NCBI GenBank assembly: GCA_008632985.1
Contig: QPGO01000030.1
Coordinates: 495,135 to 559,134, forward strand
Length of the DNA: 64,000 nt
Direction of reading: 5' to 3'
From: Psammoneis japonica
Lineage: Eukaryota
Shown: piece after piece, positions 31,658-57,906 of the stretch
Numbering within the stretch: the stretch's first letter is position 1
Layout: every line of letters starts with the position of its first letter
Made by a program: the position numbers and the translations under genes
Notes under the pieces: generated by a model
What the model was told of the DNA's origin: nothing
Database searches by the model: none
The model's input: the letters and a program-made list of their open reading frames with translations, nothing else

Positions 31658-31748
31658 GATCCAAAGTGATGGTGCTATTATACCGAGAGAAGATTTTAGA
31701 TTTTTGGATTTGAACTGTGTTGTTGTGTGTTGTGTGTTGGCAGCAGTT

Positions 31749-32739
31749 GGCACAGGCCCGCCCATTGCGCACTCCAAAACCCCAAATTGCGCACCTTTTT
31801 TTGGCACTTTGCGCAGTACGTACAATTCTGCGTGTCTCTGGTGCTGGACGACGGCAAGACGCACGACAATCCAATTGAACGAGAGTTCAACCGCCCTGCA
31901 TTCATTGTGAATTTCAAAGAGGAGCTGAAGGTGTACAAGGAGAAGACTGATGAAATAGATGATGACCATTGGACTGCTCTTGAAGGAGCGGACGAGCATG
32001 ACACCACGCTTGCATTGAAAAAGCAGGAAGAAGCTGGAGAGGAGCGCGGTCGCCCAAGCAACCTTGAAGAACACATGGGCCAGCCAACTGGCTTGGAAAG
32101 AAGATCATGCAGAGGTTGCAAGGAGGGTTTGGGAATGGTGGCGTGTTCACCATGAGAAGCACTCATCCATGTCTGAAGCCAAACGTCTAGCTGGTGGTCC
32201 TCGTGCAACTTTCCAGTGCTCCAGTCAAGAAGCGAGCAAGTTTTTCTCACACACAGCTCTCAAGCACATGTTGTTGAGACAGCCCAGCACAACACGTTGC
32301 ATGATGCCATTTTGTTGCATCTTTTTTCTCATTTGCACAAGGGACATGATGTCAATTGAGACTGTTGGCAGTGCTGCAAGAGAAGCCCAGAGTCGAGAGA
32401 GCTCTCTTCTCAGCTCAAGCGCGCTGCTTGCATGATGCAATTTTGTTGTGTTTTTTTTTCTCGTTGGCAAAAGGGGTGTGATTTAGTGGCAATGCAGTGC
32501 AGCAGCAATGTGATTAACATGATGCAGTGGCAACATGATGTGCCAGCAATGTGATGCAGCAAAATGCAATCAAGAAGCAATGGACGGTGTCATTGCCGCG
32601 GTGCCGGTGACAAAGCACAGCTGCGCTGAACCTGGTGCTGCGCCACGTGCATTCCACACAGTGCACACTCTGCGCAATGCGTTGCGCATTCTGCTGACAG
32701 AAAATCCCCATTTTGTGCACTGCGCAATGGGCCTGTGCC
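31749..32739 (+). mobile_element. Non-autonomous hAT-like DNA transposon remnant
   Basis: Inverted ends GGCACAGGCCC(GCCC)ATTGCGCA / TGCGCAATGGGCCTGTGCC, flanked by CAGTT on both sides; internal frameshifted peptide VWEWWRVHHEK..MSEAKRLA / VVLVQLSSAPV..FS resembles the hAT C-terminal dimerisation domain. Confidence 0.6.
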
Positions 32740-35700
32740 CAGTTGTGTGTTGTTGTGTGTGGTCCCAGGTTGTTGTGTGTGGTGTGTTGGGGGGCTTCTT
32801 TGGAAGTGAGATCGTCGAAGGCAGTCTGATCACCAGTGCATTTGGGGTTTTTTCCCAGTGCAATTTGCACACACAAGAAAACACGCAGGATCTGTGCAGA
32901 GGTCCCAAACACCCAATCGCACTGATTGACAGACTGTTTTTGCACAAATTCTACGTGACTTTCTTCGACAGTCTCGTTTCCGAAGAACGTCCCCAAGTGT
33001 GGTGTGCTCTCATCTCATCTCAGTGCGGAAAAAACGGTCTGTCCTCTTCCTTCCGGTCTGTCCTCTTGGAAGAGCAAACTGTGCAAAACCACTCTTGGTG
33101 TGGCTTCCCGTTGTTTCACATGCAAGCCCCATCTGCTGGCATCGGTCAGAAGGTTGACAAAGATCTTTGCGAAAACAGCGGGACAAAAGAGGGTTGGCAT
33201 CATGGCACAATTGGGGGCCAAAGACAGCACATGGCCATTTTCTAAAAAAATCTGCAGTTTGAGAATTTACACAGATTTCTTGTCATTGATTGTCCTCATT
33301 GATGTGCGATTTTTACATTGTGCATTTCCAATGAATGCCTGCATGCAAAATGCAAGCAAAGGCAAAACAACAATGAATGAGAGCTTTTGGGCCTACATCA
33401 TTCGACAAGAGCATGCATTGCAGACTCACCATGACAATGGCAAAGTGTTTGACATCACATGCCAAAAAAGCTGTGCAAATTTCTTGGTGCACTGCCATGC
33501 AGTCTGTCCTGATGGAGCAAAAAAGGCCCTTTTTGTGACAGTGGCAATGGCACTCAGAACTGTGAGCCTGGCAAATGCAGGCATGGCTGGGAGCATGTCA
33601 GTTGACAATGTTGGAGGACACAAGAAGCGCTGCACAGTGAAAAACCAATCGATTTTGGAGACAAAATTGACTTTTGCAAAGACGCCAAAAGGCAGAGGAC
33701 AGACCGGTTTTTCACTTGCACATGAAGTGATCAGCCCCGCCTGCATCAAACAATCAGAACTCAATGGGTGTGTGTTGATGGCACGGCTGATGACAATGAC
33801 TTTCGCCAGAAGGCACACTCATTGCACGCGGCAGGCATTTGGCTGGTCTTCATCTGCACACAAACAGTCTGCTTTGTGCATCACATGCAGCCAATTCAAT
33901 GAAGTGGTGGCACCAAAATGCCGCCAAAGAACAGCCTGCTGTCAATCTCAAAGAAGCGGTGGCACCAAAATGCCAAAGAAAAGCCTGCTGCCACAAAGCC
34001 ATGCAACACCCCTGCTGGGCAAGCAGCACAGCTTGGCTCACTGAGCAGGAGATCAGGTGGGTGAGCGAGGATGCTGCAACGCCACAAATGACTCAGTGGA
34101 CTGCAAAAATGTCCTGAACACAGACCTTGTCTGAAGAACAATGATCGCCACAGTGAGGGCGAGTCAGCTCCCAAAGATGTGTGCACTGTCAGAGTCATTC
34201 TGGGTGCATCAAGATCAAAAAAGGTTGCAGCAGCATTTGCACAAATGCATCTCCCAGCAGCTTTGCCTGCAGAAACAGGTTTCCCAGTCAAAGCTGCCAA
34301 CACTTGGCCCAACAATGCACTTGCAACACGCCCACAAACAAAGAGGCTCTTGTTCAGCATCTGTGGCTCATTTGAAGCTCAGCCAGCAAGCAGCAGCATT
34401 GCCATTGCTCAGTTTGCTCAACTCTGCCTTGAACAATGCTTTTGTTTGTGAAGTGGCAGCATTCTCTTGCCAGCACCAGCACGGAACTTTGCTGTCACAC
34501 ATTGCATTGTTTGCACCTGCAAGTGCAACAAAATGGGGAAAGTGGTGAGACATGCCTTGTCTGGAGATGTGGGTCATGAGGCATCATCAGTGCGCAGCAT
34601 GCAAAATCCTTCCCCTCCCCCCCCCCCCCCCTCCAACTAAAAGCCCACTGACAACTCCAGCAATGGCCGACATCCCAGGGACAGACAATCTGACAATCCT
34701 GCCCCAAACACCAAAAGATGTCCTGCCTTGTGTGTGACATTGCGCGCAAATTGCAGAGACTCTTGGTTTGTGCATGCAAGTGCAAACTCCATTTTCTTGC
34801 CTGAAGGTCTGGGGACTCACCTGTTGCATGCACATGACCTGTGGAGCATGCGCGCCATTCTGTGGACAGGAAAATGCTCAAGCACAGCCATGAGACAACT
34901 CTGACCCTGGTCGGCCATTTCACTTTGCACACAGTTGAAAAGAACGCACCACTTGCTGCAAGCATCGCTGGCAAGGGTGAGCTGTGCACACTTGGCTGGC
35001 AAAGCTGTTGCAGCACATCACAAAGACATGTGCTGCTCCTTGCATCTGGTGCCAAGTTGACAGCTGTGGGTGCTGTGAAAAACCCCACTGTGCAACCCAA
35101 GGAAGAGAAAAAGAGCCACATGAAAAGTGCCACAAAGTTGAAGAGCTTGGCCCAGCCAAGGCCCTGCAAGTGGCAAAAGTTGACATTCCAAGAACACTGT
35201 CATGTCAAACATGGTCTCATGTGCCTGATGTTGCACTCTTCTTGCACTTCTGACTCAGATGACCATTTGTTTGTGAGCAGGGCGGGAAGTTCACAGCAGC
35301 GGCACGGCATCATTCTCAGCAGCAGGCACAGCTGGCGGCACAAGTCATGAGTTGTTTTTGTCTCAGAGCCCAGCGCTTTTGTGTGGGCTGGGCACCAAAC
35401 AATGTGCACACAGCTCATGGCTGTGTGCAAGAGACCTTGTGATTTGTCCAAAAAAAATTCTCCCCTGGGGGCGAGGCACAGCTGGGGGTGCCCCAAGAGC
35501 CTGTTTGTCTTCTTTTCATTTCTGAGCTCAGCAGCTGGTCTCTTCTCAGCCAGCGTGGCAGCCCTGCTTTGGCCCAGACAGACTGCAAGAGCTGTGCATT
35601 TTCTTTTGCAGCCAGTGCACACACAAAATGTCCCAAAGGGGCAGGCAGCTTCAAAGCTGCTGAAGCCCGAAGCTGAGCACCGGGCATGCTGCACAGCTGC

Positions 35701-36040
35701 GGGGGTGAGGGCACCCTTCTTTGTTGGTGTGCAAATGATGTGCAGTTTTTCTCCCTGCCCTCCCTCCCTCCTTTCCTCCTTGGCCTGCGCCACCGCTGCC
35801 CTCTGACGATGCCCAAATGAGAGCGCCGCACATTGACGCCGCAAACTTTTGTTCAAAACAAGGCAGCAAAGGATGCCGCAGCTTTGTCGCCACACTTCCA
35901 CAAGCTCCCGGTCATTGTGGGCCATTGCCACGCACGTGCAATGCTGAAAAACAAGACCGAAACACGACAGTTCCCACATCTGTCCTCGAGACCCAACGCG
36001 TGCGTGACAAACGTTTTCCCAAAACACGCAACAAAAGAAT

Positions 36041-36098
36041 GTGCATCCGCAGGGATTCGAACCCTGGAGTGCGAATGCAGCAGTGCTTGAAACCCGCC
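36041..36098 (-). pseudogene. tRNA-Leu(CAA) 3' fragment
   Basis: Reverse complement contains the TTCAAGC anticodon loop, variable arm, GGTTCGAATCC T-loop and 3' acceptor strand; the 5' half is missing. Confidence 0.8.
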
Positions 36099-36324
36099 AT
36101 TGCTGGAGGGCACCTGTGGATGGATCTGGATTGAAAATGATGCTGCTGTCCACAAGTCATCAACAAAACCAAACTGCGGCACAGCACAAAACTTTGCAAC
36201 AATTTGGAACGAAACACTTCACCGGAATGGTCTGTGGATTTCTTTGTCAGCAGCTTCGTTGTCTCCAGAGTCTGCGCAAATGTGCGAAAATGTGGGTGCG
36301 TTTCATTGTTGAGTTCAATCCTTC

Positions 36325-38900
36325 AACCTTCAATTGTAAATTTACAATGCTCAGCTCAATCCTCAAACATGTGCGGATTTGACGGACAGGTCGGGTTGCA
36401 CGCTTCATGCTCATCCACGCAGAAGAAATCCACTGAACTGATCTTTTGCAAAGTGCGATGCAACTTGTTGCAATTCTTCACACGAGACTGCAAGCAGAGC
36501 GGCATGAAACCGACTTCCTTGTTTGCCAGCTCGTGGAGTGAAGCTTTGTCCATTTGTTGAGCAAGTGAAAGCACTTGCCAAGAAGCACCTTCTGTGTCAA
36601 CACGAGATCAACACGCTCAGCAATGGATTCGTCGATTGAGCCTAGAATCGCTTGTTCTTCCCTCGATTTTTTGCCCATCTGGCAGAAAGGACGACTGCGC
36701 TTGCAAAACTTAATGGACAAGTTCCAGGTCCAGGTGTGACCTCACACTGCTGAACTGTGACATCGACAGTTTTTTGAATCACGTCGCATGTCGCGCGCGC
36801 AGATTTCTGTGTGATTTTTTCGACATTTTGTGTCATTTTGTGGCACACATGTTGAGCGATCCGTCCAACAACTTTTGACATTTTTTGTTACAGTGCGATT
36901 CCATGATGTCTTAAGAATCGCGCAGGGCAGGCGCATTTGCAAAAACACCAAGTGGCAAGAGGCACAATTGCACCACAAACTTGGCCACTTGTTTGATGTT
37001 GAAGACAAACACATCCATTGATTTGGTTCTCGTCCTGCGGAGCTCGCACGTAGAATTCTGCAGGCCCAATGTCACATGGAGTCCCACCTGGGGCTGGAAC
37101 CCATCAATGCGGAATTGCTCGTTGTCCTCAAGGCACTGGCAGAACTCACGATCCTTTTGAGCCAAGATGCTGACTTTTTCAAAATGCAGGTCGTCGCTCG
37201 GAATGCCTTCAATCAATGCACTCACAGCAGCACGACAACACGTGTCCAATCTGCATGCCTTCCGAACTTGAACTGCCTCTTGAAGAATTCCTGATTCTTT
37301 GCATCGTCGATTTCATCAATGAAAGCTGGGACGTCTTGGGTGGGCATGGTTGAAACAGCGAAGGGGGAAATTGTGCGCGAATGTTGGTGGTCGGCGGTGT
37401 GTGTGTTGGTTTTTTGCCTTTTGTTCCGGCATTCTGCTGCTGCTTGTGCTGGCAGCAGTGGGAGTGGCAACTGCCGACAGCTGCTCTCCAGCAGTGGAGA
37501 GCTTCTTTTAGCAGCAGAGAGTGCATGCACCACAGGGGCAGTCGCAGAAACTGTCTCGCACAGCATGCAGATGCAGCACTTCTGTTGATGTGCGCGTGTT
37601 CGATCGCAGGCAGAAACCATGCATGTCTGCACCAAACAAAATCCGGGCACGACAGCACAATGCGCGATGATTCACCACATGCAGAAATCAATGAAAATCT
37701 GTGCCAAACCAGTTCTGATGGGAAGCTCACAGGTCAACTCCACACAAACTGTTCTCATGCAACCAAAGACATCAGTGCCATCTTGACAAAGACCACTCGT
37801 TGTTTGCCTTCGCAGAAGGAAGACATGGAAAAATTGAGGGATCAAGTCCACCATTGTGACAACCGCTGGACCAGGAAGGAGAAAGACAAGCATTGGAGTT
37901 CACTCAAGCGGGGTCACCAGCACTCGTTTCAGTCCGGTAAAAAACAACGGAATGTTGGCTGCACTCCTTGTCCATCCATTCAACAGATCTGCACGGAACC
38001 ACTTTGGAGGGACCCAAAAAATCTGGCTTGCCTTCCGGAATCCCACCGTCCAGTGGGGCTCAAAAAGGATCTCATGATCAGCAGAAATGCCTTGTTGGTG
38101 AAAGCTGCATGCCTCCGCAGGTGCAACATCTGCGCTGCTGTCATTGACCCTGTTGGCAAAGAACATTTGACTGTCAAAAAGTGAGTGTGCTGTCATCAGG
38201 GTTCTCAACTGCATGCCCCAAACTGTCTTTTCTTGCCCCTTTTCCATTGGTGTGTTCCTCACTCTGTTTGTTTTGTGGCAGGTGTGAGGATTGCCACATG
38301 CACTTGCTTGAAAAAATCTTGTTTGCCTTCCACCCATGCAGCAAGTGGTCTGGTGTGAATCCCAACGAAGCTGCTCTTGCTGTCAAGCGCGCCATTGCGG
38401 AAAAGCACTCTGTGCCGGAGGTTGCTTCCGTGATTGATGGTGATCACACTGCGGACGACAATGATTTGAGTGCAGAGCACAATTGCAAAACTGCGGAGTG
38501 CTCCAGCAGGGTTTTGACTGCTCGTTTGCGTCGTTTTCAAGAAGTCGAACTTGGCGCCATGGCGTTCATTCTTGTCACAGATCATCATCGCAAGATGATT
38601 CACGAGCATGACTCTGCACGCGCCACGAACGAGTTCCGAGCTCTTTGCAAATGGCACAAGGAGGCTGCGGAACAGCATGCTCAGACTTTGAATGTCGACG
38701 AGCCAGAGACATTTGCAGCTCCTCTCCGTGACCCCAGCCGCGGTGGTTGCCACTTCAATCACTTGGGTTTCCTTGGAGCTGTTCTCCCTCATTGGGAGCA
38801 CAAATCTGTTGAGCTCAATCTCCCGGAAATCACAATGGAGAGTCCATTCCTCCAGGATCTCTCTCGCACCCATGCGAGCCAGTTGCTTTTCAGGAGACAG
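36325..38900. pseudogene. Copy A of a duplicated unit with two divergent orphan genes (minus ~36350-37345; plus ~37760-38900 with intron 38181-38281)
   Basis: Aligns block by block with 40340-42530; frameshifts and Tyr loss; gtgagt...gcag intron conserved in both copies. Confidence 0.7.
36715..37105. mobile_element. ~400-bp MITE-like insertion in copy A
   Basis: Absent from copy B at the matching site (~40728); imperfect inverted ends gttccaggtccaggtgtgac / gtcccacctggggctggaac. Confidence 0.5.
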
Positions 38901-39354
38901 CAGTGCACCAAAAAAGAAACGGCTGGCCTCCACAACGTCTGCTGCAGATCAACGGTTGTTCGTTGCTTGTTTGTGTTGCATTGGGAGCAGCACATCGTGC
39001 TCTTTGTGGCAGCAACACATGCAATGGACAACATGGCATCAGCTCTGCTCGTGCCCATCAGCATCGTGACATTTTGCCGTTTGCATCTGCTGGAGCAGAG
39101 GCTGCAACGGCCAAATTGAACGCAAAGGGGAGTTGAGAGATTTCTGTTCGAGGTTGTCGTTCTGTTGGCAACTCAATTTTAAGCCAGTCGAGCTGTCTCT
39201 TTCTCTGTGGTTTCATCTTTTCTCTGGAGTCTGTCATGCATTCTGGCGGTGGCGTGCCTTCGCAACAAAGACGTGCATGTGCATGACTTCCGTCCAGCCC
39301 CCCGCACGCCAGTTCGACTTTTCATGTGTTTTTTTTTCAGTTGAATGTGCAAAC

Positions 39355-39684
39355 GCATCTGTGCCCGAGTTGGTCTAAGGGGGCAGACCCAAAAAATGAA
39401 GTTGTGATTCCTTGTGGAAAACAGTGGCAGCAAAAGTGCATCCGCAGGGATTCGAACCCTGGCGTGCGAATGCAGCAGTGCTTGAAACTGCCCCCATCTG
39501 TGCCCGAGTTGGTCCAAGGGGGCAGACCCAAAAAATAAAGTTGGGATTCCTTGTGGAAAACAGTGGCAGCAAAAGTGCATCCGCAGGGATTCGAACCCTG
39601 GCGTACGAATGCAGCAGTGCCCGAGTTGGTCTGTAAGGGGGCAGACCCAAAAAATAAAGTTGTGGAAAACAGTGGCAGCAAAAG
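39355..39684. repeat. Tandem array of tRNA-Leu fragments: plus-strand 5' halves alternating with minus-strand 3' parts
   Basis: Three gtgcccgagttggtc..aagggggcagaccc units, each followed by a shared spacer ending ggaaaacagtggcagcaaaa and then gtgcatccgcagggattcgaaccctgg. Confidence 0.8.
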
Positions 39685-39767
39685 TGCATCCACAGGGATT
39701 CGAACCCTGGCGTATAAATACAGTTGTGCTTGAAACAACCCCCATAGACCAACTCGGGCATAGATGC
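39685..39767 (-). tRNA. trnL-CAA: tRNA-Leu(CAA), apparently intact
   Basis: GCATCTA/TGGATGC acceptor stem plus discriminator A; D-arm CCCGAGTTGGTCTATGGG; GTTGT-TTCAAGC-ACAAC anticodon arm; GTA-TTTA-TAC variable arm; CAGGG-TTCGAAT-CCCTG T-arm; TTTT terminator immediately downstream. Confidence 0.85.
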
Positions 39768-40339
39768 TTGTACCTTTCGGATGGAAAATAGATGATAAAT
39801 ACAACATGTTTGTTTTATGTGTCTGTTCCCCGCCCGCCCCGCGCGCCCGCCCCAGACGCACGGTACAGTGCTGTACGTACGACAACGCATGCTCGTCATA
39901 CGGCAGTTAAATCAGACAGCCAACGAGGCACGGCGACACCCTTGTTGCGACGTTGATGAAACGAAGCGAAACTGACCCATTTCGAACGAGAAGTGTGCCG
40001 CACACATCCAATCAGCTACAACCACGAGACGAAAATCCACTCTTGTGGGACACTTCAAGCCGAACACTGGGCCGAAGGTGGTTGAGAGATGTCGCGACTC
40101 CCTTTTGTGTTTCATTTGGCTGTTGCAGCCAGACAATGTCACTGGGACGGGCTGTGTGTGGATTTGGTGGCGAAAGCAGCTGTGTTGCCTGCTCTGCGGT
40201 GCTCTCGCTGGATTGGCTTTGACTCTCAAAGACAGCCGTTCTAGCGACCCAAACAAGAAGAAGCTGCACGCATCAATTCAGGCCGGGGGGTTGGCAGAGC
40301 ATGCCAAGCTTCTGTTTCATTGGTGAAGCCAAAAATCCT

Positions 40340-45420: not shown

Positions 45421-46620
45421 CATCCATCATCAGAACAATCAATTGCGCCATCAAATGAGTGTGTCATGTCATGAACACACTTCACAAAACATTCCACATG
45501 ATCATGACAAAATTTCTCTTTCTCATCTTCACTCTGTCCGGATCCTTGATCAGATCTGCAATCCAACTGTTGACTGCCTTGGGAGTCAAATCAAAGAACT
45601 CCATTTTTCTGCAGAACCGCTTGTTGCTTCAATTTCCATGCAGGCAAAAATTTGTGGTGGAAGAACACCACTGACTTCCTCTGTGCATCACAAATGGCAC
45701 CATCATTGTCCCTCATGAGCCCACAATGGGTCATGATGACATCACGATCGGGGCTCTCAACATGTGCTTCACAAGGGCACCACATGCCCCATTCTTGTCC
45801 ATGCTGCAGGCAGGCAAGCAAACACTCAACTTTCCACATGGGTCAAAAAGGTCATTCTTGCTCTCAGGGTCAACTCAACCCATTGCCCAATGATCCAGTG
45901 ATGCACTGATCTTTGAAATGCCCTTCATTGCCAGGCTGGCCATGGATGACAACATGACATGTGCCTTGCTTGAGGCTTGAATTCCAGCATTTTGCCAGCA
46001 TTCTTTGGTCTTGTGAGCTTCACTTTCTTGATGCTTTGTTTTGTGTGTGTTCCCCTCCTCCAATCATTGTGAATGGACAACACTGGCACAGCAGACATGC
46101 TCTCTGATGTTTCAAAGCTCTGCTGTGCCATCTCTTCATGCATTTCTGTCAATGACTTGCATCTGCCCCACCACAGCAGGCCTTGCCACATGTCTTGATG
46201 ACTCTGGCTCCTCCCCCAATGGGAAGGTGCTGCCACATCTGGGTCTTCTGTCTTCATCTCCTTGACAGAGTCCAACACCTGCTGCAGGTCCAGGGTGTCT
46301 TGGTGGAGGCATGGACCAAGAGTCAGCATCTTCTGGTCACTCTCGTTCCACCTCTTCAACTCTTCCATCACTCTGTCACAATCTTTGTCTGTCATCTCTC
46401 ACTTTCTTGGGTCACTCAAACCCACAAGTCTCTCTTGGCAATCTGGCCAACAGTTTGGTGGCCACACCTTTGTCACCATGTTGTGAAACAAACAGAGCTC
46501 ACATGAGTTGTTGCCACTTGTGGCTGACATTTGTTCACAACAACAAATTCTGACTGGTTGGGCCATTTGGCTTGACACCCTTTCTGAGTTGCAGGGATCT
46601 TTCACCTGCTGCATGCATGA
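45420..46620 (-). mobile_element. Highly degenerate second Ty1/copia RT-RNaseH fragment
   Basis: Broken peptides reminiscent of SHDPK..MEEL, IGQ.QW and W.SK.Q..V motifs of diatom CoDi elements; weak similarity only. Confidence 0.35.
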
Positions 46621-46689
46621 GAGCTCTCATCTGATGTGTCACAAATCACAGAAAATGCTCCTGTCATGGAGTTGACAGCCCACATCAGC

Positions 46690-49600
46690 TTGTCTAAACT
46701 TTCAAAGCTTCTGGCCCTGCAATGGCTCAGTCACGAAGTCTCCAAGCGCGCCATTGGCAGGACAGTGTTGTGCTCTTAAGGTGCCCTTCTTGATTTGATT
46801 GGCAACAAAGAAATGCCAAATGACAAGTGCTCTGGACTGCTTGCCAGCACTCTTGCACCCATTGGTCTCAAGCAGTGTGGCACTCTTGTTGTCCCAATGC
46901 AGGACATTCTTGTCAATGAGGTGTCCGTTTTGCTCCATGAACAACTTTGTCCATGGCATCACAGCCATGGCATCATTGACTCCAACAAGTTCAGCTTGTG
47001 TGCTGCTTCAGATGTTGATCTTCTGGTGCTTCAACACAGCTTGCAATGCTCCATTGCCCATGGTCATGACTCCTCTGGTGTGGCTCTTGAAATCATCAAG
47101 ATGCGCTGCAAACAGTGATCCAAGCACCACTTGACAACTCAGAGGTCCTTTGCACTTGGCACAGAAACATCATTTCATGTCCGGCTCATGTGCTTGAGAG
47201 ACAACAGACTGGCTTTCTCCAGTCTTCATTGGCAGGTCCCCTGATGCATGATGCTGCATGAGGCGCACATCTGTGCAGCCTCTCTTGGGTGCAAGCAGTC
47301 TTTTGGCCACCCATGCATGGAATGCTTGTGCGCTCTCGGCTGGCAGTCTAGCGCCGCTGGTGTCAAATGGGTTCTCACCTGCTGGTGTCATGGCAGTGTC
47401 CATGCCCTGGATCTTTTCAACAAGCTGATCAATCATCTTGCTGCCAATGCAGCTGGTCATGTCAACCTTCACCTTGCCCTTGCAGCTGAAGTGCAGGGTC
47501 ACACCAAGACAGCCATGTCTTTTCCTTTGCATGGCAACAATGGCTTCACCATGGCTTCCACGCATCTTGTTTGGCCAGCTTGAAAATTTGTCATTTGCTT
47601 TTGAGTTCTTGTGGCTTGACATCAGGTCATCCACATGGAATCAGATGGTGAGCTGCTCGCCATTTGCAGAATTGCCTGTGCTGCAGCAGAGCCACAATCA
47701 ACACACTGCAAATGGCTCAGATGACTTGGACACAAAGGACTCACTTGCCCTTCTCCAGGGGTGGTCCACATGGATTGTGATCAATGCTCAATGGCATGTC
47801 AACCAGCTGTCCTGCAATCTTCATCACAATCTGGTCTTTGCCCTCCTCAGGCTCCAAAATCATCATCTGCACAAATGTGTTTGGTGCATTGACACTCATG
47901 ATGTTGCACTCTTTGTCAGCATCAATGACTTCCATCATCAGTGTTCCTTCTGAGGATGCTGCAGGGCTGGCTGACTCATCTTTGTCCAGCCATTCTTGTG
48001 TTGGTTTCCCATTTCAAAATCTTTTGCACTTTTGTGCAACTGTCTCATTTCTTTGTTGGAAACAATCAAGACTGCCATTGCCTTGGTCCTCCAAGTCAGA
48101 GTCATGTCCTTGACTGACAATGGCGCAGAGCACACTCAGTTGTGCAGTTCTTTCATTTCTTTCTCTGGGGCATCACCCCCCTGTGGCCAAATGATGCTTC
48201 AAGGCCTTCATGCAGCAGATGTTGTTGGGCAAATCAAACACCCTTGCCTGGTCAGAGTTGGTTGGCAATCTTGCACATGAAGTGCACTGCATTGCCACAT
48301 CACAAGCAAGCAATGTCATCCTCTGGATGGAGGCTCATGTTTGTTTGCAAATGATGGCAGTGTTTGAGCTTGTTTTGTTCTTGCTCCACTTCTTTGTTGG
48401 CATCTGCCACTCCTGCAAATTGAACTTTCCTTTTTTGCATTTGCGTGGTCTCATGTTGAAAGATGTGTCACATGGTTGCTCCACAGGCATTGCTCCACCA
48501 GGCACACCACTTGCTTCTTCCACCAATCTTTCTCCTTCCCATCCATTGTCCTCTTCATTGGGTTGGTCAGCATCTTGTGGTGGTTCTGTGGTTCCTTTGC
48601 ATTCCTTGTTGTCCTCACAGTCTTCATTTTTGTCACTTCCGCAGTTTTCATCATCATTTTCTTCTTCTTCTTCTTGGTTGCCATGTGATGTTGATCAGGA
48701 CTGAACCTTCTCTTTCATCTGCTGGAATCTCATTTTCTTCTTTGCGAGCACTCATCATCTGAGTCTGCCTCATCTTCACAATCTTCATCATCAAACTCGG
48801 TTCTTGCATGGCTGGCATCATGATGATCATCTTGTGTCTGCCCTTGCTGTCGCTTTTGTCACTGGTGCTTTGGTTGTTGTCCACTCCTGCAGCCCAGTTG
48901 GTGCTGCATAGATTGTCTCTGCACCAATTGCCCACAAGTTCAAAATCTTTGAAGCCTTGTTTTGTGGCCATCTTCTCAACTGCCTGTGTGTGTGTGTGTG
49001 TGTGTGTGTGTCAAGGCGCAGTTGCAGGGATTCAGTGGCTTGCCCATCTGCAGGTTCACAGTGCAGTGTTCACCCTTGGGCAAATCAAAATGTGGTCACA
49101 AGCATGCGCTGTCAATGTCACGTGCATCCAGAGCATTTGTTGGGTTGTCCTCAATGTGAGAAATCACAAATTCTCTGAACTGGAGCTGGAAGTGTTTGTT
49201 GCAATCAAGGTTCCTTCATTGCACAACAGCGTGTTTGCTGTGAGCATCCAAAATCCCCTCCTTTTGTGGCATGCTCATGCATCATCTTGGGTGTCATTTT
49301 GTGTGGTGCATGGTGCACAGTGGCTCAAGTTTGCTCCTTGATGGTCTGCATGCTCCGCTCACCTTTGGGAACATGCTCTTTTGTGTGAGTGAAAATCAAC
49401 TCCAGATTCACACCTTTGGCAACTTCCCCTGCATTTCCTTGAACTTGGAAAATCACACTCTGTGAAGTCAATCTTGAGTGGGGCCATGTTGTGCTGTCAG
49501 AGAATCATGCTCAGTGCTTCACACACATTGTCATGCTTCTTGGACCTCAGTCTCACTCTCAATTGACATCAGCTGATCGTCTTGTCTGTTGTGCACAGCA

Positions 49601-50920
49601 GCTTGGCACTGCATGCTTCCACAACATCAACGCAGAGGATTGCAGCACCTTTTCTCTCTCCCTCTCACATGTCTCAGGTGGTGTGGCTGTGAAGTTGTTC
49701 TTGCCTCTCATGAGAATTGGTGTGTGTGTGCTTGGTCTTGCCTTTTGGTGCATCCATTGGTTGGCCCCAAAATGGCAACCATCCTGTCCACATCTTCAGG
49801 AGGAGACTGATGGACAAGTTCTTCACCTGGTTGGAATGTAAAAATGACTTGAAATCCCTCACATTGGGTGTTCCAGCCTTGCAACACAGTCTGAGTGCTT
49901 GCTCAGCACGTGCCACCTCCCTCTTGGTGCAGCCCATGGAACTCTGTTCCACGATCAGAGCTGCAGTTCCAGGTGCACTTCTGTGCTTCTTGTTGGTCTG
50001 TTTCTTCATCTTCTTTGTCTTCTTCTTCAATGGCATGCTCGCATGTGTCTCACTTTCTTGGAGATCTTTTGTGCAGTCAAAAAACTCCTGGCTTGGCACA
50101 AAGGTGTGTGGCCCAATGTTGTTCACTTTGAACACCACAACCTGCTTGCTGGTTTTTTCTTGTCCAGCAGCCTGGACTCATTTGCCACTCAGTCATCATG
50201 AGTTGTGTGGTGCTTGCTCTTCACATCCTTTGGACTGAGAATGTTTGCTGCCATGTTCTGTGATCTGAGTTTCACACACCCCTGTCCACTGTCCGGGCAT
50301 GGCACAGGCTTTGTTCAAGGCATCCACTCCTGTGTCAGTGGACAGATCAGCTTCAGGGATTTGGCAAGTGTGTGGAGCAGGTGTTGACCTCTCATTGAGT
50401 TGAATGCAAGGAGTTGCATTGGCTTCAACAGCTTGATGGGATTGTCCCCAATCATGCTTGAGCAACTGGGACTGCCTTGCACTCTCTGCTTCATTTGCTT
50501 GGTGCAGCAGTCTTGTTCTCTTCAAGCTTCTTCACTTCATCATTGCAGTCATGGCCTGTGGCTCAGCCTTGCGCCAGCACCTCAGCTCTTTTTCTTCTTG
50601 CTGTCTTGTCTCCAGCTCCTTGTGGAGTCTGACCTTGACCCATCAGTTGGTGATTTTGTCTCTTGGGTGCACCCAAGGTGGGTTTCTCTTTGCTGAAGCC
50701 TTTGCAAATCCACCATGACAGGAGCTTCAACATCTTCTTTTCAATGTGTCTGGGGGGTCTCCTCTGTGTTTCTGCCATCTGGATGCTCCGGCACAATGAC
50801 CTTGACATTGATTGGGCCACCAACCCAACCAAGATCTTTTGCTGTGAATTTTGTGAATGTCAGCCACAACTTTTGCTCCAAGGCCTGTGCGTCCACACCA
50901 CCATCTGTGAAAAAGCTGTG
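46690..50920 (-). mobile_element. Degenerate Ty1/copia (CoDi-type) LTR retrotransposon internal region: gag, pre-integrase, integrase, RT, RNaseH
   Basis: RNaseH WTKLFMEQNGH...DNKSATLLETNG..SAGK.SR...HFF...HCP..GDFVTEPLQG; RT DDLMSSH...HGCLGVTLHFS.KGKVKVDM and VIDA...PNTFVQ; pre-integrase GCTKREVARAEQA..L...GTP..DFK...KGKT; domain order fits copia. No LTRs found. Confidence 0.85.
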
Positions 50921-50929
50921 AATCTCTGT

Positions 50930-52094
50930 GACTGTGCAAACCGCCACTCTCTTCCCACATGCTGTCTGGCCTCATGGTGGGCATGTGCATTTTTGGCTCA
51001 AAAGCCTCTGCTCCAGCCTCAACAACACAAAATTGAAGACGAAGCTTCCACGCCTTCATTTGCAAGTGTGTGGCTGCAAGCCCAGCAATGAGCTGCAGCT
51101 GCTGCTTCAATTTTGGCAATGCACCCAGAGCAGATGCACCCCCAGCATCCCCCCGCCCCCCCCTCCATGTGCACGTGCCACTTCACCCAAACAACCTGCC
51201 ATCCAGCAAACTTTGAAAGCTTTGGAAGGGAGACATGGCCCACATCTTCTTGCACATCCCATGTCATCTGTCACCTGGCCAAATGACCCACCATCAAGCA
51301 AGCTGCAGAAGCTCCAGAAAGTGACAATGGCCAACCCTCCCTTCTCACAACCCCTCTCAAACCTCCACAATCATGTGCAACAATGTGCTGAACTTGATTG
51401 CATGATTGCCTGCTGTGCAGTTGCTTGCATGACCTTGGAGATTTGCTCTCACACTGCAACCTTCACATCTCCCATGCCCCCCCCCCCCCCCCCCCCCCCC
51501 ACTTTCATCCTGCGATCTCACTCCAAGGCTCCCACCTTCATGCCACCCTCTGCAAAAAAAAAAGTTTGTTCCACCCCACTCAGCTCATCCACCTCTGGAG
51601 CACACACTGGCCTGATCATGGGCATCCTCTTCCACTTCAAAAACATTTGCTCCAACACTGCCGATGCAAAAGTGAAAACAAGACCACTCTGCCTTTGACT
51701 TCAAGCTTGAGGCCACAAGCCCAGCAAAATGCAACTGCTCTTCAGAAAGGCACATGTCCTCATCTTTGGCAATGCCACCAGAACAACTCAAAACCCCCAG
51801 CCAAATCCCATCTTCTTGCCCATCCCTTGTCACCCAAATGACCTGCCATCGAGTGAGCTGCAGGAGCTGTGGAAAGGTGCAATGGCTGCTCCTCCCTGCT
51901 CACAATCCCCCTCAAACCTTTGAAATCATGCTCAACAATGCATCAGCCTTGACTGCATCATGATTGTCTGTTGCAGCCAGCACTTGCACAACCTTGGAAA
52001 CCTTCTTTCCTGCTGCAAACTTTGCATCTCCCATGCCCCCCAGTTTCATCCTGTCGGATTGCAAACAGGGTGGCCAGTTTGTTCAAGCAAGAGA

Positions 52095-52128
<34 letters not shown>

Positions 52129-52130
52129 AA
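50930..52130 (+). mobile_element. Two tandem 3'-end fragments of the Penelope-like element, the second ending in (GA)n
   Basis: Homologous to 55300-55800 (HP.G..TGLIMG, NDPPSSELQ.LW, NLGNLLS); poly-C at ~51476-51500; GA/GACA tract 52090-52130. Confidence 0.8.
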
Positions 52131-52232
52131 GACTGCGTGGTGAACTGATTTAAAAAAAAACAACAACTGATCAAGTCTGCTTGTCTGTCCTCCACCAGTT
52201 GGATCTTTTAATGCAACAACCTCAACCACATC

Positions 52233-52296
52233 AACAACAGCAGCCAGCCACTGATGAAGCAACTGTGAAAGTCTCTCTCCTGACTTCAGCCAACAG
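52233..52296 (+). ncRNA. Minimal type I hammerhead ribozyme, degenerate (copy 1)
   Basis: CTGATGA at 52251, GAAA at 52267, GTC/GAC stem III, TT at the cleavage position. Confidence 0.55.
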
Positions 52297-55200
52297 CTGG
52301 ACAAATGTCTGAACCAGCAGCTCCACCTTGGCTGCTTGCATTTCTTGTTTGTCACATTTGAAGGAAAGTTGGCTTTGAAGTGCCAATTTTGTTTGTTGTG
52401 CCTGCCATTTGCTGAAGCAGTTGGACAAATGTCCGGTCAAGCAGCTCTGCCTTGGCTGCTTGCACCACTGTTGTTTGTCACATTTGACGGAAAATTGGCT
52501 TCACCAATTTTGATCGTTCGTTCAAGAGAGAGTGCAGTGACAACAATGGATGCTGCAACCAAGACCACCAACCCAAAACGTGCGCATTTCAATTCAACTG
52601 CGGTGAACCCAGCCAACCAGCAAACAAGGACATCCCTTGCCACCACCACCCAATGCATCAGGGACCACATCGTGTGGCTCCAACCAGAAACAGCCACCAT
52701 CCTCGAGAAGCTTGCTGTCAACCAAATCCAATTGCAAGCCAAGGCCTGTGACAAGGCCTTTCATGTCCAACGGATGGAAAAAGATGAGGAGTTCACCCCC
52801 CGCTCAACCCAAATCAACTTTGAATTTCAAATGTCAAAAACCGCTGAACAGAGCCAGGAGTTCTTGGCTCTGCAGGAGGAAACCAACGACCTCATCTCCA
52901 ATGCCCAAAAAGCCTTCAAAAAGCAAGTCATCCAAGCCACCAGGGTTGAACTTCACGTCATCCAAGAAGAAATTTTGGAGTCGTTCGCGAAAGCCACCCG
53001 ACTTGCAACCAAGAGTTTTGCTGTGGCCAACAGCATCACCACACCTGTCGACACCGCAGTGGTCACCCTGCTTGACTGCTGCCATGAAATGCTGCCAAAG
53101 TGCATCAAGGTCAAGAACCTCAATGTGTCCCTCACCAAATGCAAGGCAGCAAATGCTGTTGCTGACCTGCCACAACCGCTGGTTGCCCCTGCCGCTCGAC
53201 AATCCCAAACTCAAGATGACCGAGCCAGCGACTCCTTGTTCCTTGCACAAGAAGCAGTGCCAGCACCTGCCACTCTGCAAATCACTGCTGCACAACAGAA
53301 AATCGAGACTGAACTCAGCAAGATCTTCCGGGCGCTTGAATGCATCTTCATGTCTCCCTGGACCACCTGCCTGGCAACCAAACAGAAACATGACATCAGC
53401 CTCCAATTGAAAAAACTCAACAAGGAACACTTCGATGCCAAGGCCACCAAGAGCGCCAACATGGAAATTGATGGCAAAGCCACAGTTGACCCTCCCACTC
53501 TCCAAGAGCTCATCTGCAAGGAGACCGAGAAAAATGCCAAAAAGCTCTCCCAACAGGTCAACTCGCTTGCTCAATGCCTCAAGTCCATCAAAGCACAGCA
53601 GTCAAACAACCTGAGGGGCCAAAACTGCACCGCCGGCGCCTCATCACAAAAAGAAAAAGGCAAAGGTGCCCCATCGGATCGCACGAGGAAACAACACCCT
53701 CAATGCGACCGTGAAGCCGACAATGCCGACAACAACACCGCCAGCACAAACAAAAACAATTGACACGACTCCAAATCGAAACAGCAATCAAAAAAGAAAC
53801 AGCAGCGCTCCAACAACAGTTGGAACAGGCACCAGAGGCAACAACTCACTGAATCCATCGCACATGCGGATTCGTCACCAACCCATCTCACACAATCCAA
53901 CACAACGCCTGCACCCACCTGTGACGCATGCCCGCCTGGTGCTGCTTCAACAGGCCCTCACACCTTGCCTTCCATGACTGCACCACCACCAAACAACCTC
54001 CAATCACTGCTTGGCCTTAGTTTGAAATTTGTCCCTGCTCCGCGCTTCACCAACAACGGGAAGTCCTCCAAGATCCAAGAACAAACACTCGGAAGATTCA
54101 AACAAGACCTTGACAAACGAGATTTCTTCGCCAACGCACCTGTCAATGACGATGACAGAGGTCACAATCCCAGGATGCACCTCTGTTCCAACTGGACGCC
54201 CCCCTCCCTGGAAACTCACCAACATTGTCACATGCTGACACACAACCTTTGAATCACAAGTCACCAACCTCCTTGTGAAACGCCGTGGCAGAACCAACCT
54301 GCTGCCCCACCAACAACGTGCCCTGGCCTTTCTTCACAAACAAGACAACTTCACAATGGCCCAATGCGACAAGAACCTGGGGCCGGCCATCATCAAAAAG
54401 ACCGAATGTGCAAAGATGGCATTTTGCAACCATCTCAACGGCATGAATGCGCGCCAATTTTTGAGCGAGTTTGCATCAAAAAACTCCTCAATGACTGGCT
54501 CAAGGAACACAAAAATGGCCTCACACACTCCAATGGAATGCAAGTGCCTGAAACATTGCCTTGAAGCTAACAAAGACCCACCCCCCATCTTCCACCTTGC
54601 TCTGAAGGTGCACAAAGCCCCTCCGCTTTGATCCCGACCGATCGTCTCTGCCAGCGGCAGCCTGCTCTACGGCTCAGGCATCTGGGTGGATGACAAGCTC
54701 CAGAAAGTTGCGCGCCGCCAACAACCATGCTTCAAGAGCTCTGTGGACCTGAAACAAGCACTCGTCCAAATGGAGGTGCCATCGAACTGCCTCCTCTTCA
54801 CATCCGATGCCGAGGCCTGCCACTCCAATGTGCCCACCAAAAAAACACTTCGATTGATTGCTTCCCACCTCCGATGTCATGAACACGAACATGACGACAT
54901 GCCAACGGATGCCCTTGTCAAAGCCCTCCAAATTGTGATGGAAAATGATGCACTCACCTTCGGAGACACTGCCTGGCACAAGCGCAACGGAGCTGCCATG
55001 GGCACACCACCCGCCCCTCCATGTGCCACTTTGCACTGCGCACTTCACGAAGACATGCTCCTGGAGGAGTTCAGCTCCCAGCTTTTTCATTGCAAACAAT
55101 TCATTGATGACGTCTTCAGCATTTGGCACATTGCTGACACTGCCGCTGATGCCGCCACCTGGGAAGCATTTGCCTCCAGGCTTGATGACTTCAATGTCAC

Positions 55201-55797
55201 ATGGATCACGAGCCCACAAAGCCACCAAGTTAACTTCATGGACCTGACGATCTCACTCCAAGGCCCCAACATTCACACTGCCCTCTACAAAAGAGAAATG
55301 AACCTCTGCATGTGTGTCCCACCTCACTCAGCTCACCCGCCTGGAGCACTCACCGGCCTCATCATGGGCATGCTTCGCCGCTTTAAAAACCTGTGCTCCC
55401 AAAAATGAACTTGCTCCACCTCCGACTGCAAGCTGGAGGCTGCAAACCTGGCAAACTGCAGCCGCTCTTCCAAAAAGCGCGTGACCTCATCTTTGGCAAT
55501 GCTGCCAGAACAGCAGAAGAGCCCCAGTCAAACCCAATTTTCCTGCACCTTCCCCATCACCCAAACAACCCACCATCAAGTGAACTGCAGAAATTGTGGA
55601 AAGGTGCAGTGGCCAACCCTCCCTGCTCACAGCCCCTCTCAAACCTTCGAAGCCACGCCTGACAACGCATCGGCCTTGACCGCCTGATTGTCTGCTGTGG
55701 TCGCTCCCACAACCTTGGAAATCTCCTTTCATGCCGCACACTCCGAGTCTCCCATGGCACCCCAGTTTTGTCCTGTCGGGTTACAAACATGGAGGCC

Positions 55798-55838
<41 letters not shown>

Positions 55839-55937
55839 AACTTGATTTGAGTTCAACTTGATTTGAATTGAACAGATTCAATCAACCTGTCTGTCCTTCT
55901 TTGGATCTTTTTAATGCAACAACGCCCACCGCACGTC

Positions 55938-56008
55938 AACAACAACAGCCGGCTGCTGATGAAGCCACCACGAAAGTCTTGTTCTCCTGACTTCGGCCAA
56001 TGTTGTTG
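55938..56008 (+). ncRNA. Minimal type I hammerhead ribozyme (copy 2, best preserved)
   Basis: GGCTG-CTGATGA-AG(CCACCA)C-GAAA-GTC..GAC-TT-CGGCC; stem I is extended by caacaaca/tgttgttg. Confidence 0.7.
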
Positions 56009-56128
56009 TGCCTGCCATTCACTGAAACAGTTGGACAAACATCCAATTAAGTGGCTCTGCCTCAGCCACTTGCACTGCTGTTGTTTGTCACCTTTGACAG
56101 AAAATTGGCTTTGCCAATTTTGATCATT

Positions 56129-56169
<41 letters not shown>

Positions 56170-56263
56170 CAGAGAGAGAGAGATGGTGATTTGATTCAAA
56201 TCATTCCAATCAACTCATCTGTCCTCCTTTGGATCATTTCAGTTCAACAATGCCCACCATGTG

Positions 56264-56334
56264 AACAACAGCAGCCAGCCACTGATGAAGCCACCATGAA
56301 AGTCTCATGCTCCTGACTCTGGCCAACATTGTTG
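56264..56334 (+). ncRNA. Minimal type I hammerhead ribozyme (copy 3)
   Basis: GCCA-CTGATGA...GAAA-GTC..GAC-TC-TGGC, with a paired stem I and a CUC cleavage triplet. Confidence 0.65.
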
Positions 56335-56450
56335 TGCCTGCTGTTTGCCAAAACAGTTGGACAAACATCCAATCAAGCAGCTCTGCCTCAGCTGCCAGCA
56401 TCATTTGTTTGTCACATTTGACAGAAAATTGGCTTCACCAGTTTTGATTG

Positions 56451-56488
<38 letters not shown>

Positions 56489-56499
56489 GGGGAAGACAG

Positions 56500-57245
56500 A
56501 CAGATCATCATGGGCACATGCTGTTCCAACTCCAAAACCTTTGCTCCAATCCACAGGATGCCGGAGCCAAGATGAAGCTGCAGTGCAGTTGCTTGCAAGC
56601 CTGCGGACACAAACCCAACCAACTGCAACCAATTTTCCATGAAGCACGCAACCTGATTTTTGGAAATGCAGCCAGAACAGCAGCACCCCAGTCCAACCCA
56701 ATCTTTCTCCACATGCCCTTCCATCTGAACGACCTGCCTTCAAATGAACTTCAAAAAAATTGGAAAAGTGCTGTGTCCCAGCCACCCTCCCTGCTCACAA
56801 CCACTCTTCCACGGACCTTTGCAACTGTGCATGATGATGCATTGGCCCAGCCCACATGATTGCATGCTGCAGCTGTGCATGCAACCTTGGGAACTTGCTG
56901 TCACACCACAAGCTTGTGTGTCCTGTGGCCCCCCAGTTTTGTCCCGCCGGATTGCAGGTGTGGGAAGGCCACTGCTGCAAGAGAGAGAGAGAGAGAGACA
57001 GAGAGAGACAGAGAGTGATCAACCAGCTGTGGATTTGAAAACCAGTCATTCAAATTCACCCATCTGTCCTCCCTGCAGCAACAGCTGCACCTCGGATCTT
57101 TTTGACAGAAGAGCTTCAGCCACCACAGTCAACAACAGCAGCCAGTTGCTGATGAAGCCACCACAAAAGTCTTGCTCCCAACTTTGGCCAGTGCCACTGT
57201 GCTTGCCATTTGCTGAACAGCTGGACAAACGTCCAAATCTTTTCA
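56500..57245 (+). mobile_element. Further Penelope-like 3' fragment, (GA)n tract and pLTR module with a broken hammerhead (CTGATGA at 57149, GAAA mutated)
   Basis: LQACGHKPNQLQPIF...NLIFGNAAR homology to the long copy; GA tract ~56980-57016. Confidence 0.75.
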
Positions 57246-57906
57246 GCGCAACAACCTCTGCACACTTGTGTTGGCGCTCTCTCCCCCCCCCTGTGCGCCT
57301 CATCTCAGAGCCCCGGTGGCCATGCTGACACAAACAAGCAGCACGAGGACAATGCACACCATTTGAAAAAAGGGGGGGCTGCTTCAAATGCTTTTTTATT
57401 CAAGCACAATGCTCTGCCTCTCTTGTCATGTTGGCGGGGCGTTGTGCCGAGAATCATTCAACTCATTTCCCGCTGGCTCTTTTTTCAAGTTTGTCTTTTT
57501 AAGTTGAGAGTGAAAGAGCCCAGTCAGTGAAGAAAGGAGAGGCAGCAACTTGCCTCATGACCCACGCGGAAGCTGCACAAGAGATGCCACCTGTCTCATC
57601 CATCAAAGTGGAGGTGGGACGGCCGGGAACCAGCAACCTGCAGCAAGGAGCGAGAACAGGCGCAAATGATGTGAAACAGAATCCACCACCACACGTCAGT
57701 CGTGTTTTGGCTTTTTTGGAAGGCGGCGCCACATCATGGATCGTGCATGGCCACATCCGGCAGACCTGACTGACTGACTCATGATTCATGATGTCCGTCA
57801 CCGAACCGCTGCCAACGAAGTACCTCACCAAATGTACATGGTTGTGAAAAGCGGAGTCATACGGTGTTTTGAGGTTCATAACGCTAGTTGATGCATTACA
57901 GCAATG

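Follow-up and report, generated by a model that had tools for sequence, protein, structure and literature searches.

In mutation-accumulation lines of the chlorarachniophyte alga Bigelowiella natans, two viral insertions acquired 231 mutations, of which 230 were A:T to G:C changes falling on TpA, as reported in a recent preprint (Mettrop et al., bioRxiv 10.64898/2026.01.13.699255). In that system the targets are integrated giant-virus and virophage DNA, and a putative ADAT2-like adenine deaminase is proposed as the agent. Here we describe a block of decayed repeats, in a 64,000-nucleotide stretch of DNA from Psammoneis japonica (assembly GCA_008632985.1, contig QPGO01000030.1, positions 495,135 to 559,134 of the forward strand; this whole stretch is called the window and all positions below are counted from its first nucleotide), from which the TA dinucleotide has been almost completely erased and in which the survival of the remaining TAs depends on the bases lying 3' of the adenine.

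In Neurospora and other ascomycetes, repeat-induced point mutation (RIP) changes C to T at CpA, creating TpA and enriching the sequence in A+T, and hypermutation of retroelements by ADAR and APOBEC takes place before integration and marks one strand, with ADAR tolerating an A at position -1. The natural loop word of bacterial TadA is UACG/TACG. No natural enzyme is known that defends a genome by turning A:T into G:C in its chromosomal DNA. In Fusarium, the mRNA sites edited in an ADAT-dependent way have an excess of A/G and a deficit of C/U at +1 (PMC9600606). Amphioxus ADAT2, a tRNA-type adenosine deaminase, can mutate DNA in E. coli, where its targets are C, preferably in TCG, and A, preferably in GAA (PMC10354150).

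Results

TA is erased from a bounded block of repeats

Dinucleotides were counted over 32,200-39,340 plus 39,925-57,810 (25,027 bp, hereafter the domain, a 584-bp tRNA-gene island being left out) and compared with those of the flanks at 1-31,990 plus 57,830-64,000 (38,161 bp). The domain holds 63 TAs and the flanks 1,497, which is 6.4% of the flank density, and the relative abundance rho(TA) is 0.040 in the domain compared to 0.588 in the flanks, with 2-kb windows ranging from 0.00 to 0.18 inside the domain and from 0.48 to 0.92 outside it. AA shows no depletion (rho 1.05-1.41) and, of the two, TpA alone is depleted; TG and CA are raised (rho 1.25-2.25), rho(CG) is 0.39 (0.11-0.73 across 2-kb windows) against 1.00 in the flanks, and G+C is unchanged near 0.5 (0.49-0.52). 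The loss is confined to a bounded region, with borders resolved to approximately 300-500 bp and adjacent genes of ordinary TA content. The left edge lies somewhere from the TAs at 31,956/32,188 to that at 32,484 and adjoins the 5' end of the neighbouring open frame, and the right edge, between 57,500 and 57,821, is sharp, with 0 TA in 57,501-57,820 and 12 TA in the next 175 bp.

The missing TAs were converted in place after duplication

The direction of the change can be read from a decayed retroelement polymerase frame within the domain, with Tyr columns taken as conserved when at least 60% of 40 homologues have Tyr there. The 12 conserved Tyr columns now hold Cys (TGY) in 6 cases, His (CAY) in 4, Arg (CGC) in 1 and Tyr in 1, the sole Tyr codon kept lying in cTACaa, and other conserved columns are retained (His 5/5, Trp 5/5 and Pro 16/17). 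Both possible products are seen in the coding sequence, just as both TG and CA are enriched in the domain as a whole. When counts were made per flanking context, the loss of TA plus CG was roughly equal to the gain of TG plus CA (for example, counting both strands, GTAC -181, GCGC -5 and GTGC/GCAC +209), and therefore the missing words once existed and were converted. Paired repeats within the domain disagree at 146 aligned pyrimidine-purine (YR) steps, one copy having CA where its partner has TG, including 48 between repeat copies A and B and 70 summed over three pairwise comparisons of the family at 51,509-52,391, which shows that the copies were mutated independently, in place, after they had duplicated. 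A metagenome scan gave 79 related polymerase loci, all with ordinary TA (rho 0.44-0.98), although the scan retained the best-matching copies, which favours intact ones, and these loci served as a null and not as replication.

A rare double conversion of TA to CG was also observed: the conserved Tyr codon at 54,452 is now CGC (Arg), and at 3 aligned steps of the repeat paralogues a TA is matched by a CG; of the two changes, the later one would have had to happen outside a TpA. Other genomic copies sampled in contigs of the public run X1 were compared with 50,001-57,000, and 74 of the 81 listed kinds of change were transitions, often adjacent CA/TG swaps at one site (such as 52,691-52,692, 53,364-53,365 and 55,980-55,981), so that the pattern of alternative products reaches copies elsewhere in the genome.

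Surviving TAs are biased towards TTA and TAA

A first-pass annotation, made from the sequence by eye, had claimed that the residual TAs are mostly TTA or TAA, which would suggest a sequence-specific mutator. The residual sites that it quoted are present at the places given (12/12), among them gatTAac at 32515, cTTAAg at 36912 and 46777, ttTTAAg at 39180, tgTAaaa at 44026 and 49839, tTTAAaa at 52151 and 55384, gTTAAct at 55231 and aaTTAAg at 56048, and the bias itself holds across the domain: 45 of 63 survivors are TTA/TAA compared to 538 of 1,496 flank TAs. Conversely, a pyrimidine after the A on both strands is found for 0/63 survivors and for 449/1,496 flank TAs. Taking NTAN classes as strand-symmetric (counts given as domain/flank, and survival relative to flank density), TTAA survives best at 0.33 (12/55), followed by CTAA+TTAG at 0.17 (15/132), GTAA+TTAC at 0.13 (14/159), CTAG at 0.075 (5/102), CTAC+GTAG at 0.073 (12/249), ATAA+TTAT at 0.03 (4/192) and ATAG+CTAT at 0.01 (1/159); for ATAC+GTAT (0/199), ATAT (0/112) and GTAC (0/138) survival is 0, and these words are, as had been noticed, missing from the domain outside the island.

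Survival differs between NTAN classes in the domain and the flanks with a chi-square of 90.7 on 9 degrees of freedom (df). The TTA/TAA bias was found in each of four sub-blocks (66-85% of survivors), and removal of 8 survivors which might be copies of one another left 55 with the same ranking of classes. Under three nulls (the flank NTAN spectrum, the base frequencies of the domain, and the domain xYRy totals multiplied by the flank TA fraction) 0 of 200,000 simulations reached the observed X2. A null of back-mutation from the TG/CA words of the domain was also rejected (X2 50.0, Monte Carlo P = 5e-6), as was the NTAN spectrum of 11, 38 or 79 unmutated retroelement relatives (X2 72.0, 70.0 and 52.8, with 0/200,000 simulations reaching them). 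Equal depletion of all NTAN words after correction for composition, the outcome that would have spoken against the first-pass annotation when compared with flanks and transposon relatives, is thus rejected under all five nulls.

Each TA behaves as two half-sites and an A at +2 is protective

In our model every TA offers a target on either strand, namely its A, and the hazard of each target is set by the base 3' of that A. The fitted cumulative hazards per half-site were 0.49 for TAA, 1.20 for TAG, 1.75 for TAC and 3.31 for TAT (relative rates at +1 of 1, 2.4, 3.6 and 6.8 respectively), and the four-rate model was better than one of uniform rate with a likelihood-ratio of 75.2 on 3 df (P = 3e-16); bootstrapping gave P(T>C)=1.0, P(C>G)=0.99 and P(G>A)=1.0. 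This additive model reproduces the class counts (Pearson 6.68 on 6 df, P = 0.35) and predicts 13.5 TTAA survivors where 12 are observed, so that TTAA survives because it consists of two independently poor half-sites. Three proposals of the first-pass annotation are borne out by these figures: an A followed by A is a poor target, having the lowest hazard; TTAA is protected on both strands, as two independent protected half-sites account for its number; and TAY is preferred, both TAC and TAT having hazards above those of TAG and TAA, with pyrimidines at +1 on both strands in no survivor.

A second determinant, absent from that annotation, lies one base further downstream. An A at +2 is found in 0.59 of the half-sites beside survivors compared to 0.25 in the flanks (P = 2e-15), with a smaller difference at +3 (0.40 compared to 0.27, P = 0.0065). 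The effect of the +2 A persists within each +1 base (survivor/flank half-sites being 32/182 for TAAA and 25/411 for TAAB, 20/241 for TACA and 6/641 for TACB, and 22/248 for TAGA and 16/495 for TAGB) and also against the dinucleotide background of the domain itself (P = 7e-5, 5e-4 and 2e-5). Adding one factor for a +2 A (k=0.33 on the hazard) improved the fit by 39.1 on 1 df, and an A at +2 thus cuts the rate of loss about threefold.

Context is read on the 3' side of the mutated A

Because TA is self-complementary, survival alone is silent on whether the 3' base or the base two positions 5' of the A is the one that matters, and it is the product which can tell them apart. Some TAs are kept in one repeat copy and mutated, between identical flanks, in its partner; among these, the A on the pyrimidine side was mutated and that on the purine side spared in 9 cases against 1 (P = 0.011), and 10 of 12 events agree with the order T>C>G>A. 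The likelihood ratio for a deciding base at +1 over one at -2 was 300, or 40 when repeated units were counted once. Where CpG loss is mild, as it is in two of the sub-blocks, ATAA gave ACAA (+29/+30) and almost no ATGA (-4/+3), and CTAC gave CTGC (+58/+43) in excess of CCAC (+18/+16). These results place the determinant on the 3' side of the A that was mutated.

CpG loss is a separate process

TA loss is near complete in every sub-block (rho 0.015-0.073), whereas CpG loss is uneven, with rho from 0.12 (44-51 kb) to 0.66 (36-44 kb). Near the right border, CpG is back at its normal density by approximately 57,560 (14 CpG in about 256 bp) and TA is absent up to 57,820, so that erasure of TA extends some 250 bp beyond the CpG depletion, an offset which is one sign that the two losses are separate processes. 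Survival of CpG depends mildly on the 5' base (TCG 0.33, ACG 0.36, CCG 0.41 and GCG 0.56, computed by hand), and the CpG decay would be the ordinary loss of methylated CpG in silenced repeats.

The products are not evenly divided between the strands in all blocks. CA exceeds TG at 51-57 kb (717 against 509) and at 44-46 kb (271 against 211), the blocks in which the polymerase frames run on the plus strand, with the opposite asymmetry at 48-51 kb (TG 384 against CA 311), and the (A+C)-(G+T) skew reaches 0.31 within 44,001-57,000; this block asymmetry may come from strand-biased mutation or from the composition of the elements themselves. Along the aligned repeat copies (36,300-57,236), neighbouring discordant CA/TG sites tend to point alike (63 runs compared to 78.6 expected, z -2.71), which hints that several TAs on one strand were converted together in short patches, and a runs test of TG against CA order over the whole sequence of the domain showed no clustering (z +1.1 and -0.7).

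An intact tRNA gene is spared

The domain is interrupted by an island with three tandem tRNA-like copies, the left part of which consists of two partly mutated copies. Its right part at 39,660-39,924 is unmutated, with 15 TA in 265 bp, rho(TA) 0.93 and CpG rho 1.03, and corresponds to the intact tRNA-Leu(CAA) gene and approximately 150 bp upstream of it. These 265 bp hold the words that are most sensitive in the domain (GTAC 4, ATAC/GTAT 4), and so something besides local sequence decides where the process acts; chromatin state, selection or a later insertion could each account for the sparing. The tRNA copies cannot be used as a mutated and unmutated pair, as compensated transversions in the anticodon stem mark the left copies as a different isodecoder that is neither parent nor offspring of the intact gene. 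A further mutated tRNA-like copy was seen at 36,017-36,102, and an Rfam search over 32-58 kb returned tRNA as the only family to pass.

Repeats, retroelement and neighbouring genes

The domain consists of diverged repeats which, within the window, match each other only (Table 1). Depth of X1 contigs reached 1,943 on the domain compared to 61 on single-copy flank, indicating that the repeat family is multi-copy in the genome. Comparison with X1 contigs gave 0 differences over stretches of the domain and 1 difference over the right border (57,161-60,000), although the run may be the assembly's own source.

The polymerase frame has 290 homologues (best E 2.5e-106, 47% identity) bearing the Pfam labels PF28514/PF26215, and its nearest Atlas clusters bear DUF8422, HTH_animal and partly RVT_1; the retroelement assignment is made from these precomputed Pfam labels of the homologues and from the Atlas clusters. 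Direct Pfam searches with the polymerase frame, its best homologue and the putative 501-codon frame upstream matched 0 families, those with 55 stop-to-stop frames from across the domain yielded no meaningful match, and a profile search of solved structures gave one chance match (E 0.4). The motifs of the polymerase might suggest the label 'Penelope-like', which we do not claim.

A short tandem array in copy B (41,089-41,303) contributes four GTAG to the surviving TAs. Microsatellites of (GA)n/(AGAGAC)n type between 52,070 and 57,030 occupy the same place in each copy of a 3.6-3.7-kb repeat family. Two perfectly identical 74-bp tandem copies lie at 45,122-45,269, in the most heavily mutated part of the domain, and as they are identical this duplication is later than the mutation.

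Genes of the flanks are ordinary eukaryotic ones (a bromodomain protein, an FAD monooxygenase, a mitochondrial carrier and an MFE-2-type hydratase), and the protein clusters closest to the carrier are commonest in Bacillariophyta. Outside the domain, 26,001-28,000 has unusually high TA (127 TA, rho 0.92) with a CpG rho of 0.82, and the sequence from approximately 26.5 to 30.2 kb is without an open frame of 200 codons.

Table 1. Positions in the window of the TA-erased domain, its surviving sites, repeats and neighbours
Feature	Position	Strand	Evidence or remark
TA-erased, CpG-poor, TG/CA-rich repeat domain	32,200-57,810 (about)	.	TA counts and rho values
Surviving TA in TTTAAAA (example)	52,151-52,152	.	
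TTAA survivors (12)	32515, 36711, 36912, 39180, 46777, 52151, 52209, 55231, 55384, 55912, 56048, 57500		
Decayed retroelement polymerase frame, one in-frame TGA (read as X)	54,239-55,405	+	Homologues
Putative open frame of 501 codons, upstream of polymerase frame	52,258-53,763	+	Placement only; no Pfam match
Older paralogue of polymerase region	44,583-45,193	+	61% identical to 53,978-54,631
Repeat unit copy A	36,300-38,902	+	Paralogous to 40,314-42,537, 72-86% identity
Repeat unit copy B	40,314-42,537	+	Bears most surviving TA
Repeat family	51,509-52,391	+	More copies at 55,243-56,122 and 56,507-57,190
TA-retaining island, three tandem tRNA-like copies	39,341-39,924	.	20 TA in 584 bp
Intact tRNA-Leu(CAA), third copy	39,684-39,767	-	ARAGORN; Rfam tRNA 48.9 bits, E 8e-8
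Left neighbouring open frame, ordinary TA content	30,272-32,074	-	Domain begins just past its 5' end
Right neighbouring gene, mitochondrial carrier, ordinary TA content	58,950-60,371	+	Mito_carr, E 1e-35

Discussion

A probable targeted process and its footprint

The results support the sequence-specific mutator of the first-pass annotation, for which TAA is a poor target and TAY a preferred one, and we think it probable that a region-targeted process has converted TpA to TpG or CpA in these decayed repeats, acting on independent half-sites at rates set by the +1 and +2 bases. On this account the process, an A:T to G:C change, acted in place on a part of a diatom-like nuclear genome that is made up of decayed repeats, a retroelement among them, with the separate and uneven decay of CpG overlaid upon it. 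The data themselves show the erasure and its direction, its timing after the repeats had duplicated, its dependence on context and the side that is read. The two As of each TA, one per strand, would be lost independently and at a rate given by the 3' bases of the same strand, which would leave those TAs that are followed on either strand by purines and especially by A (TTAA, TTTAAA, CTAGAA and GTAAA) and drive to extinction those words with a downstream pyrimidine on both strands (GTAC, ATAT and GTAT/ATAC). The agent may well be a polynucleotide adenine deaminase that acts on DNA and contacts the T at -1 and the bases at +1 and +2; a modification directed at the T of the complementary strand fits the data equally. 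Since an active tRNA gene and some 150 bp upstream of it are spared whatever their context, the process is probably aimed at silenced repeat chromatin.

Several points weigh against this account. The context model is borne by only 63 survivors (55 without possible copies), some of which may be regenerated TAs, and the ancestral NTAN spectrum had to be inferred from flanks and relatives. GTAC falls below the prediction of the additive model (0 against 2.7), and some present contexts are themselves products (TATA giving TACA, and TACG giving TACA/TATG), inflating TACA somewhat. The product-choice set is small, at 12 events of which several are within one tandem array, and Fisher tests of product ratios over the whole domain were significant in 2 of 6 classes (ATAA P = 0.01, ATAG P = 0.019), being flat for ATAC, CTAC and GTAA and giving P = 0.099 in a fourth class. 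For ATAC the top product makes up 0.56 where 0.35 was predicted, and therefore the placing of TAT above TAC comes from survival only. The 10 Tyr codons that were mutated are no guide to the side that is read (likelihood ratio 1.7 between the two models), and 3 of the 4 CTAC Tyr codons changed on the supposedly slower TAG side, which may reflect the strand bias of the block at 51-57 kb.

Among other explanations, the context bias might come from repair, if all TpA adenines were damaged alike and the lesion (hypoxanthine, for example) were removed better before purines. Survival measures net loss, and so any step from lesion to mutation could hold the +1/+2 dependence, and the strict requirement for T at -1 and the weaker effects at +1/+2 could come from different proteins, but strand-specific product choice is expected equally under a mutator and under repair and we consider this origin of the bias unlikely. 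It is unlikely, too, that the residual TAs are new, having arisen by ordinary mutation after the process had ended, with contexts that reflect this input. There are approximately 5,400 TG/CA steps one transition away from TA, of which about 1% later divergence would make dozens of TAs, and the perfect 74-bp tandem duplication at 45,122-45,269 shows that later events have occurred; however, the null built from domain xTGy+xCAy words is the one rejected above with X2 50.0 (Monte Carlo P = 5e-6), some 15 TAs would be expected under it in ATAC/GTAT, ATAT and GTAC together where 0 are seen, and four TA sites outside the island are common to both copies of diverged repeats, which fits retention. Were the mutator still active, the same context rule would filter any regenerated TAs, and the fingerprint would stand.

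That the bias was inherited, the TAs of the ancestral repeats having lain mainly in words like TTAA and TAAA, is very improbable. Transposon word use can differ from that of genes, which dominate the flank reference, but inherited composition fails the test against unmutated retroelement relatives, which have an ordinary NTAN spectrum (+1 A 0.22, +2 A 0.27) and whose null is rejected (X2 52.8-72.0); the mass balance includes large conversions of GTAC and ATAT, and the 265 unmutated bp of the island hold GTAC 4 and ATAC/GTAT 4. Base calling is known to err systematically in repeat DNA that is heavily modified, and the public runs found come from one sample and may be the source of the assembly, yet an artefact of sequencing or assembly, such as miscalling of modified repeat bases, is barely credible here: X1 contigs match stretches of the domain exactly and cross the right border, paralogues and other genomic copies show clean CA/TG alternatives at the same sites, Tyr codons have become proper Cys or His codons, and the same signature is present in Illumina mutation-accumulation data from another alga.

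Beyond the targeted conversion of TpA itself, a wider reading can be offered tentatively, although we would not go so far as to favour it: that diatoms have a repeat-directed DNA mutator of adenine chemistry, a counterpart of RIP in mirror image, which needs T at -1, prefers a pyrimidine at +1, is disfavoured by A at +2 and acts on either strand in short strand-coherent patches. As this footprint is unlike those of the characterised deaminases (bacterial TadA, fungal Tad2/3, amphioxus ADAT2 and ADAR), the agent would be a new natural DNA adenine deaminase or a new T-modifying pathway, possibly shared with Bigelowiella across algae of the SAR group. An enzyme of this kind would be of interest for base-editing work. 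The footprint (the order of rates at +1, the threefold protection by A at +2, strand independence and a determinant on the 3' side) provides a direct test for candidate enzymes in vitro or in E. coli, and it accounts for the particular TAs, stop codons and tyrosine codons that dead transposons still retain.

Comparison with known systems

Like RIP, the process described here is a region-wide, dinucleotide-specific transition hypermutation of repeats that has sharp borders and kills transposons, but here TpA is destroyed with G+C at 0.49-0.52 and the chemistry is on A (or T) and not on C. RIP was rejected as a candidate, since rho(TA) is 0.04, G+C is unchanged and the direction is opposite. The ADAR and APOBEC systems resemble it in producing deaminase-driven clustered transitions in retroelements with neighbour preferences, whereas here both strands are affected, non-coding repeats are mutated up to a sharp chromosomal border, and the copies have diverged after duplicating in place; unlike with ADAR, AA is not depleted (rho 1.05-1.41). 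Editing of double-stranded RNA of the ADAR type, fixed by retrotransposition, was ruled out by the enrichment of both TG and CA, the occurrence of Cys (6) as well as His (4) at Tyr columns, and the divergence after duplication.

The first-pass annotation had been reminded of the UAC/TAC context of TadA-like enzymes. The T 5' of the A agrees with this, TpA alone being depleted, but TAT is lost at least as hard as TAC, and TACG half-sites survive better than TACC+TACT (5/192 compared to 1/449, P = 0.011). The 3' context departs from those of bacterial TadA, fungal Tad2/Tad3 and amphioxus ADAT2 alike, and a place in the TadA/ADAT family may be suggested by the 5' T only. The work on fungal Tad2/Tad3 mRNA editing describes a likewise strong requirement for U/T at -1 with a weaker influence of +1 to +4 and A depleted at +2, on a substrate that is an RNA hairpin loop, with no change in DNA and a +1 preference opposite to TAY (PMC9600606). 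Amphioxus ADAT2 echoes the joint loss of CpG and TpA seen here in targeting both C and A with TCG as a context, but prefers GAA and not TA, and our CpG loss is only mildly TCG-biased and is spatially decoupled from the loss of TA.

A literature search for a TpA process in diatoms or for a genome defence by A-to-G change in DNA returned the Bigelowiella preprint alone (a text match to 'TpA' in PMC4504042 proved to be 'Tpase'). That system, like ours, changes A:T to G:C at TpA only, yielding TpG/CpA, is confined to sharply bounded foreign or transposon-like regions, and leaves a long-term depletion of TpA with a gain in CpA+TpG. The domain shows this same conversion of TpA to TpG/CpA, with a second process of CpG to TpG/CpA superimposed, in a bounded region of mobile elements whose neighbours are untouched. 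The two differ in that Bigelowiella is a chlorarachniophyte and the present host a diatom-like stramenopile, and in that the viral insertions keep 3.3% TpA whereas the transposon relics here are at rho 0.04; in the text available, the preprint does not mention a co-depletion of CpG such as the CpG loss seen here, nor does it give a context beyond the dinucleotide, where the effects at +1 and +2 are resolved here. As far as that text shows, what is new here is the effect of the +2 A in TpA-only hypermutation, for which the published precedent is this 2026 preprint on an unrelated alga, and with the footprint it can now be examined if diatoms and chlorarachniophytes have one system in common.

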